64,000 nucleotides of DNA from Escherichia coli (GTDB lineage: Bacteria > Pseudomonadota > Gammaproteobacteria > Enterobacterales > Enterobacteriaceae), in NCBI RefSeq assembly GCF_003790525.1, contig NZ_CP033635.1, one strand, 5' to 3'. The position numbers were made by a program, and so were the translations under genes. The notes under the pieces are model-generated. The model was not told the DNA's origin. It saw only the letters and a list, made by a program, of their open reading frames with translations, and searched no databases. Each line of letters starts with the position of its first letter. Positions within the stretch are counted from its first letter, which is position 1. Positions 51,089-60,860 of this stretch are shown here, piece by piece.

Positions 51089-51727
51089 TTACCCACGGGC
51101 AGGGTTCACCAAAAGCCAGCTCAGGATGGTCTCTTTGATCACCCTGCGTCTGGCTTCCAAAGCCTCAGGTGAAACCATGCTAATGTGATAAACCATCCCC
51201 AGTGTGTACTGGTTTATTAAATAATATGCACCCAGTGCGGCGATATTAATGTTGATTTGTAAGGGATCAATATATTTCTTAAAGGTTTTCTGCCGCTGCC
51301 CTTCTTCTAATAATGAAGCCATTGACTGCAAATGTGCATGGTTAATTTCAGCGAGGCGTTTTGATTTTTTATAATGCACACCCTTACTTTGGTTTTCACT
51401 ATGGACAATTTTTAAAAACCACGGGTTATTGATGTAATAATCCCAAGTAAAATCAATTATTTTCTCGATCGCAATAACCGGCGAAAGCCCTGAAATGTCA
51501 AGCTCTCTCTCTTTTTCGCGAATATCGTTCCAGGTATATTCCAGTACTTCAATAAACAAATTTTCTTTATTACCAAAGTGGTGATAAACCGTCTGTTTAC
51601 TGCACCCTGCTGCCTTAACAATATTATCTACTCTGGCCCCTTCGTAACCATATTCGGCAAATTCATTAACCGCGCATAGCAGCAATTTTTCCTTCAGGTT
51701 TTGTGCGTGACTGGTATCAAGATACAT
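51089..51727 (-). CDS. TetR/AcrR-family transcriptional regulator (212 aa), divergent from the downstream catabolic/TRAP operon
   Basis: ORF 51089..51814; start ATG 51725-51727 with GAGGAAG RBS gives [51 protein letters not shown] (TetR HTH). Confidence 0.85.
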
Positions 51728-51848
51728 TCCACTTCCCCACTTCCTCTTCGTGATGGCTATCATAACCGGATTTGATCTCAGCGACAGCAAAAAGGATAAA
51801 AGTCGTAATTTCATTGAGTTATCAAATTACCTGTGATCACTCTCGCAT

Positions 51849-51870
51849 ATCAACCAACTAGATGGTTGAT
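51849..51870. promoter_or_regulatory. Candidate TetR operator (22-bp near-perfect palindrome)
   Basis: atcaacca-actaga-tggttgat with one central mismatch, in the divergent intergenic region between the TetR gene and the SDR gene. Confidence 0.55.
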
Positions 51871-51936
51871 CTTTTTACCTTCCAGTCGCAAGCTAATCAT
51901 CACTCAAGGAAACAATATTCAAAAGAGGGTCATTGT

Positions 51937-52728
51937 ATGAAATCCACTCGTCCTGTTGCTGTCATCACTGGTGCTGCACGTGGTATTGGAAAGGGTTGTG
52001 CGCTGGAACTTGCTCGTAGCGGGTTTAACCTGCTGATTAACGATCGCCCTGATGCCGACAGCGTAGAAAAACTGCATATCACACAACAAGAATGTATGGC
52101 AGAAGGCGTGGAGGTCATTTGCTTCCCTGCCGATGTTGGCGATCTCTCCCTGCATGAAGAGATGCTCGACGCGGCGCAAAACCAGTGGGGGCGTCTGGAC
52201 TGTCTGCTCAACAACGCAGGGATTTCAGTGAAAAAGCGCGGTGACCTCCTCGATCTCGAGCCAGACAGTTTCGACCAAAACATTGCCATCAATACCCGCG
52301 CGCCGTTCTTCCTCGCTCAGGCATTCAGTAAACGTCTGCTCGCACAGCCGAAACCGGAAGCGGAGCTGCCGCACCGCTCGATTATTTTTGTCAGTTCAAT
52401 CAACGCCATCATGCTGGCGATGAATCGCGGCGAATACACCATTGCCAAAACCGCCGTTTCTGCCGCTGCTCGTCTGTTTGCTGCTCGCCTTTGTAATGAA
52501 CAAATTGGCGTTTATGAAGTGCGTCCTGGTCTCATCAAAACCGATATGACTATTCCGGCAACGGCCTATTACGACGAACTGATTGCCAAAGGTCTGGTGC
52601 CGTGGGGACGTTGGGGTTATCCGGCTGATATTGCTTCCACTGTCCGCGCGATGGCGGAAGGTAAACTGATTTACACCTGTGGTCAGGCGGTCGCCATCGA
52701 CGGCGGCTTAAGTATGCCGCGCTTCTGA
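51937..52728 (+). CDS. Short-chain dehydrogenase/reductase (SDR), about 263 aa
   Basis: ORF 51862..52728; ATG at 51937 after AGAGGG gives MKSTRPVAVITGAARGIGKGCALELARSG (TGxxxGxG); NNAG motif; catalytic Y-x3-K (YTIAK). Confidence 0.88.
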   Translation: MKSTRPVAVITGAARGIGKGCALELARSGFNLLINDRPDADSVEKLHITQQECMAEGVEVICFPADVGDLSLHEEMLDAAQNQWGRLDCLLNNAGISVKKRGDLLDLEPDSFDQNIAINTRAPFFLAQAFSKRLLAQPKPEAELPHRSIIFVSSINAIMLAMNRGEYTIAKTAVSAAARLFAARLCNEQIGVYEVRPGLIKTDMTIPATAYYDELIAKGLVPWGRWGYPADIASTVRAMAEGKLIYTCGQAVAIDGGLSMPRF

Positions 52729-58492: not shown

Positions 58493-58534
58493 AGATAATA
58501 AACAACAACCAACCATAGTAGGAATGGAGAAATT

Positions 58535-59836
58535 ATGGATTACTGGTTACCGATTATTGTGTTATTTGGTGCCTTCTTTTTTATGTTGGCATTAGGTGTA
58601 CCTATTGTTTATGCCATTGGTTTATCCACACTGGCATCAATTTCCACACAACTCGATTTCAACTCAGCATTGAGTGTGGTTTCCCAAAAGTTAGCCTCCG
58701 GGTTAGATAGCTTTACATTATTGGCAATTCCATTTTTTATTTTGTCTGGCAACATTATGAATCATGGAGGAATAGCGCGACGATTAATCAACTTTGCCAG
58801 AATTCTTGGCGGTCGACTGCCTGGCTCACTTGCTCACTGTAATATTCTTGCCAATATGCTGTTCGGGGCAATTTCTGGTTCAGCTGTTGCTTCGGCGGCT
58901 GCGATGGGCGGCGTCATGCATCCGCAACAGGTTAAAGAGGGCTACGACCCGGCATTCAGTACTGCGGTTAACGTTGCCTCTGCCCCGACGGGTTTGCTTA
59001 TTCCACCAAGTAATACGTTAATCGTCTATTCACTGGTCAGTGGTGGTACTTCTATTGCCGCACTGTTCCTGGCGGGTTATGTTCCGGGAATTTTGCTGGG
59101 TCTGGCACTGATGGTAATAGCCGGTATTATCGCGGTACGTCGCGGTTATCCAAAGCCAGAACGCCCGACTTTACGCCAGGCTGGCGTTGCGATATGGATG
59201 GCTATCCCCAGTATTTTCCTGATTATTTTAATTATGGGGGGTGTATTAAGTGGTATTTTTACCCCGACAGAGGCCTCCGCAATTGCAGTAATTTATACCC
59301 TTTTCCTTGCACTGGTTCTTTATCGTGAAATCTCAGTTAAAGATTTACCTAAAATATTTCTGGAATCCGTTATTACCACTGCAATTGTCTTGTTATTAAT
59401 TGGTTCTTCGATGGGAATGTCATGGGCGATGTCAAACGCTGACGTTCCCTTCCTGATTCTCGATTTGCTTAACACTATTTCTGACAACCCAATAATAATC
59501 CTGCTTATTATCAATATTATCCTGTTGATTATCGGCACTTTTATGGATATGACACCGGCGGTACTGATTTTTACGCCGATATTTTTACCGGTTGTCACCG
59601 AACTGGGCATGGACCCGATTCACTTTGGTATTGTCATGGTACTGAACATGTGTATCGGTATTTGTACTCCGCCTGTAGGCAGTGTGTTATTTGTCGGTTG
59701 TAGTGTATCTAAATTACCGATTAATAAAATTATCAAACCTATGCTGCCATTTTATGCCGTGATGGTATTGGTGCTGGCAATGGTGACCTATATTCCGCAA
59801 ATCAGTATGGCATTGCCAAGAGCACTGGGTTACTGA
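58535..59836 (+). CDS. TRAP transporter large permease (DctM family), 433 aa
   Basis: Polytopic ORF MDYWLPIIVLFGAFFFMLALGVPIVYAIGLSTLASI... typical of DctM. Confidence 0.88.
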   Translation: MDYWLPIIVLFGAFFFMLALGVPIVYAIGLSTLASISTQLDFNSALSVVSQKLASGLDSFTLLAIPFFILSGNIMNHGGIARRLINFARILGGRLPGSLAHCNILANMLFGAISGSAVASAAAMGGVMHPQQVKEGYDPAFSTAVNVASAPTGLLIPPSNTLIVYSLVSGGTSIAALFLAGYVPGILLGLALMVIAGIIAVRRGYPKPERPTLRQAGVAIWMAIPSIFLIILIMGGVLSGIFTPTEASAIAVIYTLFLALVLYREISVKDLPKIFLESVITTAIVLLLIGSSMGMSWAMSNADVPFLILDLLNTISDNPIIILLIINIILLIIGTFMDMTPAVLIFTPIFLPVVTELGMDPIHFGIVMVLNMCIGICTPPVGSVLFVGCSVSKLPINKIIKPMLPFYAVMVLVLAMVTYIPQISMALPRALGY

Positions 59837-59888
59837 TGCGCATTCACTGGCGGCACCTGCCGCCATATTTATTAGAAAAGGAACATCT

Positions 59889-60860
59889 ATGAAAATAAAA
59901 GTATCCGCTGGCATTATCGGTGCTGTTCTTATGTTATCCGCAAGCCAGTCCTGGGCAGTGACATTAAAACTGAGTCATAATCAGGATAAGTCTCATCCTG
60001 TTCATAAAGCGATGGAGTTCTTTGCGAAAAAGAGCAAAGAGTACTCTAACGGTGATATTACTATTCGTATTTATCCAAATGGAACATTGGGTACTCAACG
60101 AGAAACAATGGAGCTGATTCGTTCTGGCGCTATTCCACTGGTAAAAACCAACGCGGCAGAAATGGAAGCATTTGAAAATTCCTATAAATTATTTAGCCTG
60201 CCTTATTTGTTCCGCGATCGTGATCATTATTATCAGGTCATGCAGGGCGATATCGGGAGAAAAATCCTCGACTCAACGAAAAGCAAAGGTTATTTCGGGC
60301 TGACTTTTTATGATGGAGGCGCCCGCAGTTTCTACGGCAATAAACCAGTACTGAAACCAGACGATCTCAAAGGCATGAAAGTCCGTGTCCAGCCAAGTCC
60401 TGGCGCAGTTGAAATGATCAAAGTCATGGGCGGTAACCCGACGCCACTGGATTACGGCGAGTTGTATACAGCCTTACAGCAGGGTGTGGTCGATATGGCA
60501 GAAAACAGCGTGATGGCGCTGACCACCATGCGTCACGGTGAAGTGGCAAAATCCTTCAGCCTTGACGAACACACTATGGTTCCCGATGTGGTTCTGATGA
60601 GCAATGCTGCGTTTGATAAACTTAGCCCGGAAAATCAGGCAGTTATATTAAAAGCAGCTAAAGAATCAATGAGCTACATGAAAGACTTGTGGAGCGAGGA
60701 AGAGAAACAAGAATTTGCAAAACTGGATAAAATGGGCGTGAAAGTCTACCAGGTAGATAAAGCTCCGTTTATCGAGAAAGTACAGCCAATGTACGCAAAC
60801 TTCGCTAAGGACAACCCAGCCCTTGCCCCAATGCTGGCTGATATTCAGGCAGCTAAGTAA
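59889..60860 (+). CDS. TRAP transporter periplasmic solute-binding protein (DctP family), 323 aa
   Basis: ORF with signal peptide MKIKVSAGIIGAVLMLSASQSWA followed by a DctP-like sequence. Confidence 0.88.
   Translation: MKIKVSAGIIGAVLMLSASQSWAVTLKLSHNQDKSHPVHKAMEFFAKKSKEYSNGDITIRIYPNGTLGTQRETMELIRSGAIPLVKTNAAEMEAFENSYKLFSLPYLFRDRDHYYQVMQGDIGRKILDSTKSKGYFGLTFYDGGARSFYGNKPVLKPDDLKGMKVRVQPSPGAVEMIKVMGGNPTPLDYGELYTALQQGVVDMAENSVMALTTMRHGEVAKSFSLDEHTMVPDVVLMSNAAFDKLSPENQAVILKAAKESMSYMKDLWSEEEKQEFAKLDKMGVKVYQVDKAPFIEKVQPMYANFAKDNPALAPMLADIQAAK

Follow-up and report, generated by a model that had tools for sequence, protein, structure and literature searches.

Positions 51089 to 60860 of the Escherichia coli sequence that we analysed (the window, 64,000 nucleotides, 100% identical to E. 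coli SMS-3-5, NC_010498.1) hold an operon that is real, intact and repressor-controlled. On balance, we favour the reading that this TetR-repressed, probably CRP-assisted operon serves the catabolism of a hexuronic acid or a close derivative outside the classical UxaC/Uxu/Uxa route. If so, a glucuronate-like sugar acid would be imported and then broken down by an enzyme set absent from described pathways. Full-text literature searches found no description of the operon and no characterised pathway with the same gene set, a precedent that the initial annotation had named as evidence against its own proposal; a 2019 review of hexuronate catabolism never mentions CoA.

All nine genes lie where the initial annotation had placed them, are annotated in RefSeq and belong to the same families according to NCBIfam, Pfam and PDB sequence searches. 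The TetR gene is divergent, and SDR, TIM-barrel, crotonase, YdiF-type CoA-transferase, SdhA-like flavoprotein and dctQMP genes follow in that order:

51089..51727, minus strand: TetR/AcrR-family repressor gene, 212 aa (RefSeq start), divergent from the operon (RefSeq; NCBIfam TetR-family N-termini)
51832..51847, plus strand: candidate cAMP-CRP site TGTGATCACTCTCGCA (TGTGA-N6-TCRCA match)
51849..51870, no strand: 22-bp palindrome ATCAACCAACTAGATGGTTGAT, probable TetR operator (unique in the window; half-sites conserved)
51937..52728, plus strand: classical SDR, 263 aa (NCBIfam PRK12745, PDB, motifs)
52738..53580, plus strand: xylose-isomerase-like TIM-barrel protein, 280 aa (Pfam AP_endonuc_2)
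53590..54366, plus strand: crotonase-family enoyl-CoA hydratase, 258 aa (NCBIfam short-chain enoyl-CoA hydratase models)
54376..55917, plus strand: fused family-I (YdiF/Pct-type) CoA-transferase, 513 aa (PDB 2ahu, NCBIfam)
55914..57995, plus strand: SdhA/NadB/AprA-class FAD_binding_2 flavoprotein, 693 aa
58016..58492, plus strand: TRAP small permease DctQ (YiaM-like by NCBIfam; Pfam DctQ on orthologues)
58535..59836, plus strand: TRAP large permease DctM (TIGR00786, 458 bits)
59848..59865, plus strand: GC-rich stem-loop followed by a T-run, between dctM and dctP
59889..60860, plus strand: TRAP substrate-binding protein DctP (NF037995, TIGR00787)
60924..60950, no strand: symmetric terminator with a 12-bp stem, common to the converging dctP and rplI transcripts

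The genes are spaced by 9, 9 and 9 bp, a 4-bp ATGA overlap, and then 20, 42 and 52 bp, so the tight packing described earlier stands, with gaps of 9-52 rather than 9-50 bp or ATGA overlaps. If dctQ began instead at the ATG at 57992, its start would overlap the stop codon of the flavoprotein gene. Promoter-like and terminator-like sites in a regional scan did not exceed their frequency in shuffled sequence, and it is thus only spacing and conservation that argue for co-transcription.

The palindrome ATCAACCAACTAGATGGTTGAT has its sole match in the 64 kb at this position and none in 100 shuffles. In several genera its half-sites (ATCAACC..GGTTGAT) are conserved, often in two copies, beside TetR orthologues that are 40-44% identical. 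They stand 5' of the SDR orthologue in other Escherichia species and in Entomohabitans, Edaphovirga, Yersinia alsatica, Mangrovibacter and Martelella; Brenneria has them in degenerate form. Occurring once in the window and kept from genus to genus, the palindrome that the initial annotation proposed as an operator is probably that of TetR. Orthologues of the repressor match Pfam TetR_N and TetR_C_29. Directly upstream lies TGTGATCACTCTCGCA, the only TGTGA-N6-TCRCA match in the window; because at least one match also arose in 21 of 100 shuffles, this candidate CRP site is weak taken alone. Other Escherichia species and Entomohabitans also have a similar site adjoining the operator; that of Brenneria is a perfect TGTGA-N6-TCACA.

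Among 5,426 complete E. coli genomes, the enzyme set is present in about 3,130 (~58%); the TRAP version occurs in 1,446 (27%) and the same enzymes with an MFS transporter in 1,686. The block is strain-variable, as had been supposed, but common rather than rare, and K-12 and O157 lack it or have lost it by deletion. As the initial annotation stated, K-12 has yjfZ and a short TetR-like ytfA in this interval. By its alignment, ytfA is a truncated remnant of the operon's TetR gene (81% identity by tblastn, to the C-terminal two-thirds), whereas yjfZ is unrelated and has no counterpart at the locus. DNA alignment of K-12 over the TetR gene covers 51089-51472 only, a 102-bp fragment of the SDR gene is still there, and homology resumes at 60919, where the dctP/rplI terminator is retained.

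Klebsiella and some Salmonella carry the operon at the same site as E. coli, three genera in all. Every gene is intact at all inspected loci, among them those of the type strain, K. oxytoca, Salmonella and K. huaxiensis. Ratios of dN/dS against Klebsiella and Salmonella orthologues are 0.03-0.09, and every gene of the operon is under purifying selection. Absence from K-12 and O157 and IS insertions in a few genomes (NU14, hits H32 and H38) might suggest a decaying or non-functional accessory island. We rejected this reading as scarcely credible, given the intact genes, the low dN/dS, the site occupied in three genera and the number of genomes that have the block.

The TRAP transporter and an ExuT-like MFS protein form two interchangeable cassettes, of which the MFS is the commoner in E. 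coli; the coupling of TRAP genes to these enzymes that was first described is therefore that of only part of the species. The MFS protein is 47-48% identical to K-12 ExuT as against 26-32% to DgoT, GarP and LgoT. DctP, which has a signal peptide (...SQSWA/VT), shares 54% identity with the E. coli orthologue of the D-glucuronate-binding protein STM3169 and keeps six of seven published ligand residues (N31, Q32, R146, R166, N206 and D233), with Q70 replacing E74. Its best PDB relatives are 4ovr, 4x8r, 4n8y and 4n15. Of these, 4X8R was reported with glucuronate and 4N8Y with galacturonate (PMC11668362); 4N91 and 4MHF bind D-glucuronate, and the STM3169 model was built on 4N15 (Bamb_6123) as template (PMC7660916). 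The closest solved relatives thus fall in the hexuronate-binding TRAP group. DctP itself and its relatives of at least 76% identity make up a clade of their own, confined to the operon. For the next clade of binding proteins, at 53-61% identity, the one locus sampled is that of Vibrio panuliri, where the gene stands beside UxaC, a mannitol-dehydrogenase-family gene, UxuA, PfkB, GH2 and GntR. Judged by homology, both alternative transporters are paralogues of hexuronate importers and point to a hexuronate-like ligand, a type that did not figure among the possibilities first listed. Known hexuronate transporters are ~50% identical, a distance at which specificity can differ, and the Gln of DctP in place of the Glu74 of glucuronate binders counts against a glucuronate-like ligand.

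Orthologous TetR-regulated clusters have other transporters, a PcaK-like AAHS protein in Brenneria and an AAHS/ACS-like MFS protein in Yersinia alsatica, and a related cluster in Raoultella, LacI-associated rather than TetR-regulated, has a ShiA-like MHS transporter. All three point to ring carboxylates that are not uronates. Under this alternative the substrate would be a carbocyclic polyhydroxy-carboxylate (quinate, shikimate or another hydroaromatic acid of this kind), similar to a pyranuronate in shape and processed by SDR oxidation, TIM-barrel dehydration and flavin- or CoA-dependent ring chemistry. The AP_endonuc_2 family of the TIM barrel includes dehydroshikimate and inosose dehydratases. 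We consider this improbable: the E. coli transporters are nearest to glucuronate and ExuT systems, not to ShiA or PcaK; the TIM barrel does not match a solved dehydroshikimate dehydratase at E <= 0.01; and the operon has no ring-cleavage or ring-hydrolase enzyme. The acyl-CoA dehydrogenase of one related locus (L044) matches cyclohexane-1-carbonyl-CoA dehydrogenase models, but below cut-offs, and its best match, acryloyl-CoA reductase, is a generic one.

No enzyme of the operon has a characterised close homologue, so all catalytic roles are assigned by family. The FabG-like SDR matches NCBIfam PRK12745 (420 bits), more weakly glucose 1-dehydrogenase and KduD, and PDB entries 4da9 and 4one; its motifs are TGxxxGIG, NNAG, Ser and Y167-x3-K171. 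The TIM-barrel protein (AP_endonuc_2, 6e-38) is nearest to 3qc0 and 3ju2 (SMc04130, which has no assigned function; 3e-85), with weak matches to IolI, IolO and ketose 3-epimerases. With candidate metal ligands E146, D185, H210 and E254, it is probably a metal-dependent keto-sugar isomerase, epimerase or dehydratase. The crotonase has both catalytic glutamates (GGGIE115, NPE135), which we take to be E144 and E164 of rat enoyl-CoA hydratase. The CoA-transferase aligns over its full length with E. coli YdiF (PDB 2ahu, 5.6e-115) and matches NCBIfam FadX and the A and B halves of 3-oxoacid CoA-transferase; by alignment offset, E324 (VEQG) would stand at the position expected for the catalytic Glu333 of YdiF. 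Its closest representative (54%) lies among LacI, CoA-transferase and GMC oxidoreductase genes.

The flavoprotein falls in the SdhA/NadB/AprA class, in a family that is highly conserved and uncharacterised; the exchanged transporter cassette includes its last ~90 residues. The fumarate-binding histidines of FrdA are absent (His232 to Gly276, His355 to Gln436), whereas the carboxylate-binding arginine is kept (Arg469, FrdA R390), so the 'fumarate-reductase-like' label given earlier holds for the fold and not for the substrate. The AlphaFold model is of low quality at the conserved active-site loops. Across 76 related loci, Gfo/Idh/MocA proteins, GMC oxidoreductases, aldehyde dehydrogenase, LacI and sugar ABC transporters recur beside the flavoprotein, and of the 12 loci with a KDG-kinase-like gene 11 have it directly 3' of the flavoprotein gene. 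SDR, TIM barrel and flavoprotein occur together under the same TetR and operator without a CoA enzyme in Brenneria, Yersinia alsatica, Edaphovirga, Mangrovibacter and Martelella. These three form a core conserved across phyla, and the CoA enzymes, found with it in the Escherichia, Klebsiella and Salmonella group, are an extra module.

The initial annotation had taken the operon to process a small organic acid by beta-oxidation-like or enoate-reducing steps. Such an acid, not a sugar, would be imported, receive CoA by transfer, be desaturated or reduced by the flavoprotein, hydrated by the crotonase and oxidised by the SDR, the 3-oxoacyl-CoA serving as next CoA donor. The 3-oxoacid/YdiF type of the transferase, the hydratase glutamates and the FabG-like SDR all suit this scheme, as do the CoA-transferase and crotonase genes adjacent in 11-14 of the 76 loci, the MaoC R-hydratase added in one related operon (L091), and two loci (L018 and L044) that join CoA-transferase, crotonase, TRAP, acyl-CoA dehydrogenase and ETF to the flavoprotein. 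However, the core persists in five genera without CoA enzymes, this operon has neither thiolase nor acyl-CoA dehydrogenase, the TIM barrel is left without a role, both transporters are hexuronate-type and the flavoprotein's usual neighbours are carbohydrate genes. The route fits poorly, and we think it unlikely. TetR control, packing, strain variability, family names and the ytfA remnant are the supported parts of the initial annotation; its account of substrate and route is judged less likely.

A Cai-like anaerobic electron sink would instead convert a beta-hydroxy (sugar) acid to its CoA ester, dehydrate it with the crotonase and reduce the enoyl product with the flavoprotein, disposing of electrons rather than supplying carbon. 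CoA-transferase, crotonase and flavoprotein mirror the logic of CaiB, CaiD and CaiA, and the flavoprotein superfamily includes reductases. Yet the operon has no electron-transfer partner (ETF, Fe-S subunit or cytochrome); the palindrome (ATCAA-N12-TTGAT), compared by eye, misfits the FNR consensus, TTGAT-N4-ATCAA; the CRP-like site suggests carbon-source control; and the KDG-kinase-like gene after the flavoprotein in Rhodobacterales points to assimilation. We regard this alternative as quite improbable.

Hexuronate-type transporters, a core to which CoA enzymes are added and a flavoprotein without fumarate histidines together make a hexuronate-like sugar acid, rather than a small fatty-type acid, the probable substrate. 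It may be 4-O-methyl-glucuronate, L-iduronate, mannuronate or guluronate, or a 4-deoxy-5-keto-uronate; since UxaC already allows E. coli to grow on glucuronate and galacturonate, the actual substrate can only be guessed. In the hexuronate scheme, a TetR dimer would occupy the 22-bp palindrome between the divergent genes without inducer and be released by the substrate or an early intermediate. R146 and R166 of DctP would hold the sugar-acid carboxylate for delivery to DctQM, an ExuT-like symporter acting instead in other strains. By superfamily chemistry, the flavoprotein may take hydrogen from the alpha and beta positions beside the carboxylate, C5 and C4 of a uronate, giving a 4-keto or enol uronate with loss of the C4/C5 stereocentres or of a 4-O-substituent. 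The TIM-barrel enzyme, using metal, could isomerise or epimerise the keto-sugar acid and the SDR reduce or oxidise a carbonyl, by analogy with KduI/KduD or UxaC/UxuB. The YdiF-type transferase would turn a carboxylate or 3-oxoacid product into a CoA ester and the crotonase add or remove water at the beta-hydroxyl; with CoA handed to the next molecule, no ATP would be spent. The flavoprotein, TIM-barrel/SDR and CoA steps may run in another order, and the end product would be expected to enter the KDG/Entner-Doudoroff route or the Ashwell pathway. No chemically necessary role joins all five enzymes, and several proposed steps make others redundant.

The operon resembles the E. coli hexuronate (Ashwell) system (ExuT, UxaC, UxaB/UxaA, UxuB/UxuA, ExuR) in its ExuT-like alternative MFS, in the class of substrate predicted for it and in its likely end point, KDG, from which KdgK and Eda can complete the route in E. 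coli. In contrast, none of its five enzymes is homologous to UxaC, UxaA/B or UxuA/B, its regulator is TetR-type rather than GntR-type, and its CoA-dependent enzymes and SdhA-like flavoprotein have no Ashwell counterpart. The DctPQM architecture is that of the Salmonella D-glucuronate TRAP system STM3169-3171 and of solved hexuronate TRAP proteins (4N91, 4MHF, 4X8R, 4N8Y), whereas Gln70 for Glu74, the separate clade and the linked enzymes differ. KduI/KduD (DhuI/DhuD, DEHU reductase), which take 4-deoxy-5-keto-uronates to KDG, offer a possible analogy of isomerase followed by SDR reductase on a keto-uronate; the operon SDR matches KduD models at 1e-34, below cut-offs, the isomerase fold is a TIM barrel (AP_endonuc_2) rather than cupin or RpiB, and the flavoprotein always stands beside the pair. 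The logic is common to the cai operon, where a beta-hydroxy acid is handled by a CoA-transferase, a crotonase and a flavoprotein and transfer recycles the CoA, but CaiB is a family-III and the operon enzyme a family-I transferase, and CaiA is an acyl-CoA dehydrogenase served by FixABCX, whereas the operon flavoprotein is SdhA-like with no electron-transfer genes. Unlike SdhA/FrdA, NadB and APS/PAPS reductase alpha, this flavoprotein has Cys81 at the covalent-FAD histidine, a capping domain with its own invariant motifs (FPWNLSGTY, RKGYQWPFH), ~90 additional C-terminal residues and no Fe-S partner gene. The CoA-transferase has the fused alpha/beta architecture of YdiF, an acetate/acetoacetate CoA-transferase, and is its paralogue at roughly 40% identity in another gene context.

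The window is identical in sequence to E. coli SMS-3-5 (NC_010498.1). The TetR gene and the eight co-oriented genes that the initial annotation placed between ytfB and rplI are found alike in the ORF list and in the RefSeq annotation, with a ytfB homologue on one side and rplI on the other. Successive operon genes are separated by 9, 9 and 9 bp, a 4-bp ATGA overlap, and 20, 42 and 52 bp. The locus comprises the following features.

51089-51727, minus strand: TetR/AcrR-family regulator gene (RefSeq, ORF list)
51832-51847: CRP-like site TGTGATCACTCTCGCA, abutting the TetR palindrome
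51849-51870: palindrome ATCAACCAACTAGATGGTTGAT, candidate TetR operator
51937-60860, plus strand: run of eight genes, for SDR, TIM-barrel protein, crotonase, CoA-transferase, flavoprotein, DctQ, DctM and DctP (RefSeq, ORF list)
60924-60950: symmetric terminator, closing the operon against rplI

The regulator combines an N-terminal helix-turn-helix with a ligand-binding C-terminal domain (NCBIfam, Pfam), with NCBIfam TetR-type matches across residues 7-154 and Pfam TetR_N and TetR_C_29 in its orthologues. The palindromic operator proposed for the divergent region is present, occurs once in the window and in 0 of 100 shuffles, and is phylogenetically conserved: the half-site ATCAACC..GGTTGAT is kept 5' of the SDR gene, often in two copies, in genera with a related gene order (type A, defined below). 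The palindrome is thus a putative TetR operator within a divergent promoter region. By eye it is not an FNR site, its arrangement being ATCAA-N12-TTGAT as against the FNR consensus TTGAT-N4-ATCAA. The adjoining CRP-like site (TGTGA-N6-TCRCA) has an equivalent beside the operator in other Escherichia species and in Entomohabitans, and in Brenneria the site next to the operator fits the CRP consensus perfectly. Generic scans for promoters and terminators gave counts not above those of shuffles, and no Rfam family matched in the operon region. Between dctM and dctP, a GC-rich stem-loop followed by a T-run (59848-59865) may have arisen by chance or may adjust how much binding protein is made relative to permease.

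The family names first given to the SDR, TIM-barrel protein, crotonase, YdiF-type transferase and DctQMP hold by profile and PDB matches. The SDR scores 420 bits against PRK12745 and shows the motifs of a classical SDR, namely the cofactor motif TGxxxGIG (GAARGIG at residue 12), NNAG at 92 and a Ser-Tyr-Lys triad (SSIN at 153, Y167, K171); it scores under the cut-offs of the sugar dehydrogenase and KduD models. The TIM-barrel protein matches Pfam AP_endonuc_2 at 6e-38, and its relatives are only function-unassigned proteins (SMc04130) and, distantly, keto-sugar isomerases and epimerases. A close relationship to dehydroshikimate dehydratase was considered and dropped, there being no PDB match at E <= 0.01. 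The crotonase has both glutamates of an enoyl-CoA hydratase in the GGGxE and xPE motifs (E115 in GGGIE and E135 in NPE), presumably corresponding to E144 and E164 of the rat enzyme, ECH. The CoA-transferase is a fused, YdiF-type family-I enzyme: it matches E. coli YdiF (2ahu) over its full length at 5.6e-115, its two halves match the pcaI/scoA and pcaJ/scoB models within one chain, and by alignment offset E324 in VEQG lies where the thioester-forming catalytic glutamate is expected. Judged by these motifs, crotonase and CoA-transferase are catalytically competent enzymes, unremarkable within their families. The closest CoA-transferase representative adjoins LacI and GMC oxidoreductase genes, and on the short contigs that carry the closest representatives only LacI/CoA-transferase/GMC or CoA-transferase/crotonase combinations are visible.

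The transporter genes bear most directly on the class of substrate. DctQ (NCBIfam YiaM-like), DctM (TIGR00786 at 458 bits) and DctP (TIGR00787 and NF037995, above cut-offs) are all complete and make up a three-component TRAP system; DctP begins with MKIKVSAGIIGAVLMLSASQSWA/VT, a signal peptide as read from the sequence. The best solved relatives of DctP fall within the hexuronate-binding group of TRAP proteins; of the solved structures, 4X8R was reported with glucuronate and 4N8Y with galacturonate (PMC11668362), 4N91 and 4MHF are D-glucuronate binders, and 4N15 served as the modelling template for STM3169, a D-glucuronate-binding protein of Salmonella (PMC7660916). Of the seven ligand contacts in STM3169 (N35, Q36, E74, R150, R170, N210 and D237; PMC7660916), DctP keeps six as N31, Q32, R146, R166, N206 and D233, with Gln70 replacing Glu74; among these are the carboxylate-binding arginines, R166 aligning with R170 and R146 with R150. 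DctP thus appears to be a close paralogue of the D-glucuronate-specific binders of the STM3169/Apre_1383 type, and we do not class it as a glucuronate binder. Its orthologues at an identity of at least 76% occur only inside this operon. The next clade of binding proteins, at 53-61% identity, was sampled at one locus, in Vibrio panuliri, where it has neighbouring genes for UxaC, a mannitol-dehydrogenase-family protein, UxuA, PfkB, GH2 and GntR. Some E. coli have a paralogous TRAP system between ygiQ and ftsP, the binding protein of which is 54% identical to DctP and has all seven STM3169 residues in the published numbering. At this site E. coli WP3-W18-CRE-03 carries the STM3169-orthologue TRAP with mannitol-dehydrogenase-family, Zn-ADH and Ldh-family genes and an FCD regulator, and the locus looks like one of gulonate/glucuronate type. 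A TRAP system has been mentioned for BEN2908 as well; by its mismatched gene order this seems to be another locus.

In other E. coli genomes the same TetR gene and five enzyme genes, at 91-99% nucleotide identity, are followed not by dctQMP but by a single MFS gene. The protein is 47-48% identical to ExuT, the hexuronate transporter of K-12, as against 26-32% to DgoT, GarP and LgoT. Two independent lines, the TRAP binding protein and the alternative MFS protein, thus converge on the hexuronate class, which leads us to expect a hexuronic acid, or one of its close derivatives, as the substrate. A phloroglucinol-type pathway was rejected since its substrate is no carboxylate, whereas both transporters are of carboxylate type. 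Related clusters elsewhere have other transporters (PcaK-like in Brenneria, ShiA-like in Raoultella, AAHS/ACS-like in Yersinia alsatica), so that the cluster family may handle several ring carboxylates.

The block had been thought strain-variable, and so it proved: among 5,426 complete E. coli genomes the TRAP version is present in 1,446, the same enzymes with the MFS gene in 1,686, and yjfZ in 2,524. Since these counts together exceed 5,426, yjfZ and the operon must coexist in some genomes. The operon is carried by, among others, the species type strain, ETEC H10407 and numerous isolates from humans and animals. In K-12 the interval holds rplI, yjfZ, the ytfA pseudogene and ytfB, as stated in the initial annotation, which asked whether ytfA and yjfZ are remnants of the locus. 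The DNA alignment to K-12 runs from ytfB to 51472, that is, through the C-terminal two-thirds of the TetR gene, which correspond to ytfA (81% identity to TetR in tblastn, with only 84% in the flank); a 102-bp fragment of the SDR gene (52026-52127) survives, 52128-60918 is replaced by about 1 kb containing yjfZ, and homology returns at the terminator. Thus ytfA is a relic of the operon, derived from its TetR gene, and yjfZ, without similarity to the locus in this alignment, is not. O157 Sakai has yjfZ and IS609 at the site. K-12 and O157, both laboratory strains, are without a nutrient-use operon that is conserved, under selection and present in most E. coli. The intergenic site collects other genes as well: a hipBA-like pair, a HipA-family toxin and its HTH partner, follows the MFS gene in the type strain ATCC 11775 (locus L083:11872-13634), IS609 lies at L085:11842-13589 in O157 Sakai, and an EamA-family gene stands between operon and rplI in Klebsiella and Salmonella.

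The TRAP and MFS versions part at a swap breakpoint within the final ~300 bp of the flavoprotein coding sequence (window 57600-58000). Residues 1-600 of the SMS-3-5 flavoprotein are 96% identical to the type-strain protein; residues 601-693 (~90 aa) share only 52-58% identity with the Escherichia, Klebsiella and Salmonella versions compared and 38% with that of L091, a locus in Logan assembly DRR121775, which leaves the donor outside the set of loci retrieved. With its interchangeable TRAP and ExuT-like cassettes, the operon illustrates clearly how one transporter can replace another. Outside E. coli, the Klebsiella oxytoca group and some Salmonella enterica have the MFS version at the ytfB-rplI site and K. 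huaxiensis the TRAP version, and dN/dS is 0.03-0.09 for every operon gene against Klebsiella and Salmonella orthologues. This distribution and the dN/dS values indicate a functional operon of long standing in Enterobacteriaceae, which has been lost or remodelled repeatedly.

Three further observations concern exchange at the site. Window 50001-51996 (fklB 3' end, ytfB, TetR gene and intergenic region) shares only 68-84% identity with the type strain and 84% with K-12, whereas the operon body is 91-99% and rplI 99.5% identical. The ytfB/TetR haplotype of SMS-3-5 is deeply divergent, which suggests old recombination here. The ExuT-like MFS genes of E. coli (L083:10452-11729) and K. oxytoca (L086:12128-13405) share only 52% identity and the enzymes beside them 78-91%, suggesting a further transporter replacement. 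L091 has a distant but full Escherichia-type operon in which dctP is divergent and a gene for a MaoC-type hydratase is added. Relative to the window, identity is 42-62% for its enzymes, 86% for its DctM and 76% for its DctP, and mobility looks greater for the TRAP cassette than for the enzymes.

The flavoprotein, first described as fumarate-reductase-like, resembles fumarate reductase in its fold and not in its active site or partners. It matches Pfam FAD_binding_2 and has the FAD-binding, capping and C-terminal helical domains of SdhA/FrdA. Among the dicarboxylate-binding and catalytic residues of fumarate reductase (FrdA numbering), profile alignment places Gly276 at H232 and Gln436 at H355, and only R469, the equivalent of R390, is kept; genes for an Fe-S subunit and a membrane anchor are absent from the operon and from every related locus inspected. 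These features argue that the flavoprotein is not a fumarate reductase. The chemistry common to the superfamily is removal of a hydride and a proton at two atoms beside a carboxylate. This is the best guide to the flavoprotein, and in a uronate the two atoms are C5 and C4. In the alignment to SdhA chains Cys81 takes the position of the covalent-FAD histidine. Residue 81 (gene at window 55914-57995) is a nearly invariant cysteine, and a cysteinyl-FAD link is possible. An AlphaFold model has a pTM of 0.86, with low confidence precisely in the conserved active-site loops.

The flavoprotein family is widespread and strongly conserved. In a large protein collection its members bear only generic names ('FAD-binding protein', 'succinate dehydrogenase flavoprotein subunit'), and sequence identity is 54-60% across Rhizobiales, Rhodobacterales, Betaproteobacteria, Planctomycetota, Lentisphaerota and Verrucomicrobiota, with a mean column identity of 65%. 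A scan with one genome per species gave 80 loci, among which we distinguish three neighbourhoods. In type A, found in Yersinia alsatica, Edaphovirga, Mangrovibacter, Martelella and Brenneria, TetR is divergent from genes for SDR, (Gfo/Idh/MocA), TIM barrel, MFS and flavoprotein; Lentisphaeria, Opitutia and Rhodocyclaceae have the SDR, Gfo, TIM-barrel and flavoprotein genes of this type without the regulator. In type B, found in Raoultella, Pantoea, Bradyrhizobium and others, LacI accompanies CoA-transferase, crotonase, (aldehyde dehydrogenase, GMC oxidoreductase), transporter and flavoprotein genes, and some loci add TRAP, acyl-CoA dehydrogenase and ETF. Type C joins a sugar ABC transporter, two GMC oxidoreductases and Gfo/Idh/MocA to the flavoprotein, directly followed in Rhodobacterales by a KDG-kinase-like gene; Agrobacterium loci have an aldehyde dehydrogenase gene instead. 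Because the TetR half-site is kept 5' of the SDR gene in the type A genera, we take the Escherichia operon to be a type A cluster in which crotonase and CoA-transferase genes follow that for the TIM barrel and precede that for the flavoprotein; loci with this CoA module lack the Gfo/Idh/MocA gene of type A. Pfam matches in the large genes neighbouring the Yersinia alsatica and Brenneria clusters revealed no glycoside hydrolase or lyase, only a crystallin/inhibitor-like protein and a helicase.

The enzymes had been read as a beta-oxidation-like or enoate-reducing route. For a beta-oxidation cycle the gene content is a poor fit: acyl-CoA dehydrogenase (ACAD) and thiolase are absent from the E. 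coli operon by gene annotation and NCBIfam, and ACAD and ETF occur only in the distant flavoprotein loci L018 and L044. We lean instead, by a little, towards a uronate-type catabolic model as an overall statement, and hold its single steps to be much less probable. TetR would repress at the palindrome, and CRP may assist activation. A uronate-type acid would enter through the TRAP or ExuT-like system and be oxidized by the flavoprotein at C4/C5; the TIM-barrel enzyme and SDR, playing a part like that of KduI/KduD or UxaC/UxuB, would rearrange the keto-uronate and reduce it. CoA-transferase and crotonase would carry out a thioester-assisted elimination or addition of water at the beta-hydroxyl, with CoA recycled by transfer, and the product would pass into KDG or Ashwell metabolism. 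The KDG-kinase-like gene beside the Rhodobacterales flavoprotein fits a sugar-acid intermediate; where clusters have neutral-sugar transporters, their GMC and aldehyde dehydrogenase genes fit it too.

A more specific version, which we consider rather doubtful, is an undescribed uronic-acid route in which an SdhA-like 'uronate 4,5-dehydrogenase', or CoA-thioester-assisted elimination and re-addition at C4/C5, or both, would erase stereocentres or a 4-O-substituent. If so, L-iduronate (host glycosaminoglycans, ulvan) and 4-O-methyl-glucuronate (xylan), uronates for which we know of no monomer pathway, could enter KDG/Ashwell metabolism. A 2019 review describes microbial L-iduronate catabolism as not clear (PMC6353982). 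The proposed route would also be the first case of CoA-thioester chemistry in uronate metabolism. Were the substrate a host- or diet-derived uronate, the operon would give E. coli, the Klebsiella oxytoca group and some Salmonella a niche-specific carbon source. A function for the operon would be the first for its flavoprotein family, which on the uronate reading would mark related sugar-acid pathways in Rhizobiales, Rhodobacterales, Planctomycetota, Lentisphaerota and Verrucomicrobiota.

The suggestion that the gene set is undescribed agrees with our full-text literature searches, which gave no paper on the operon. Judged by its genes, this is probably a sugar-acid catabolic operon built on an uncharacterised flavoprotein family and on CoA chemistry, the chemistry being what we infer. 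None of its proteins matches the UxaC, altronate/mannonate oxidoreductase or dehydratase families in NCBIfam, and the Ashwell pathway genes are located elsewhere in E. coli. Its logic is like that of the cai operon, but the protein families differ. Its transport parts belong to known families; its combination of enzymes appears to be none of the reviewed hexuronate routes and differs from the Ashwell, oxidative, reductive and DEHU pathways, in the review of which a CoA step is absent (PMC6353982).
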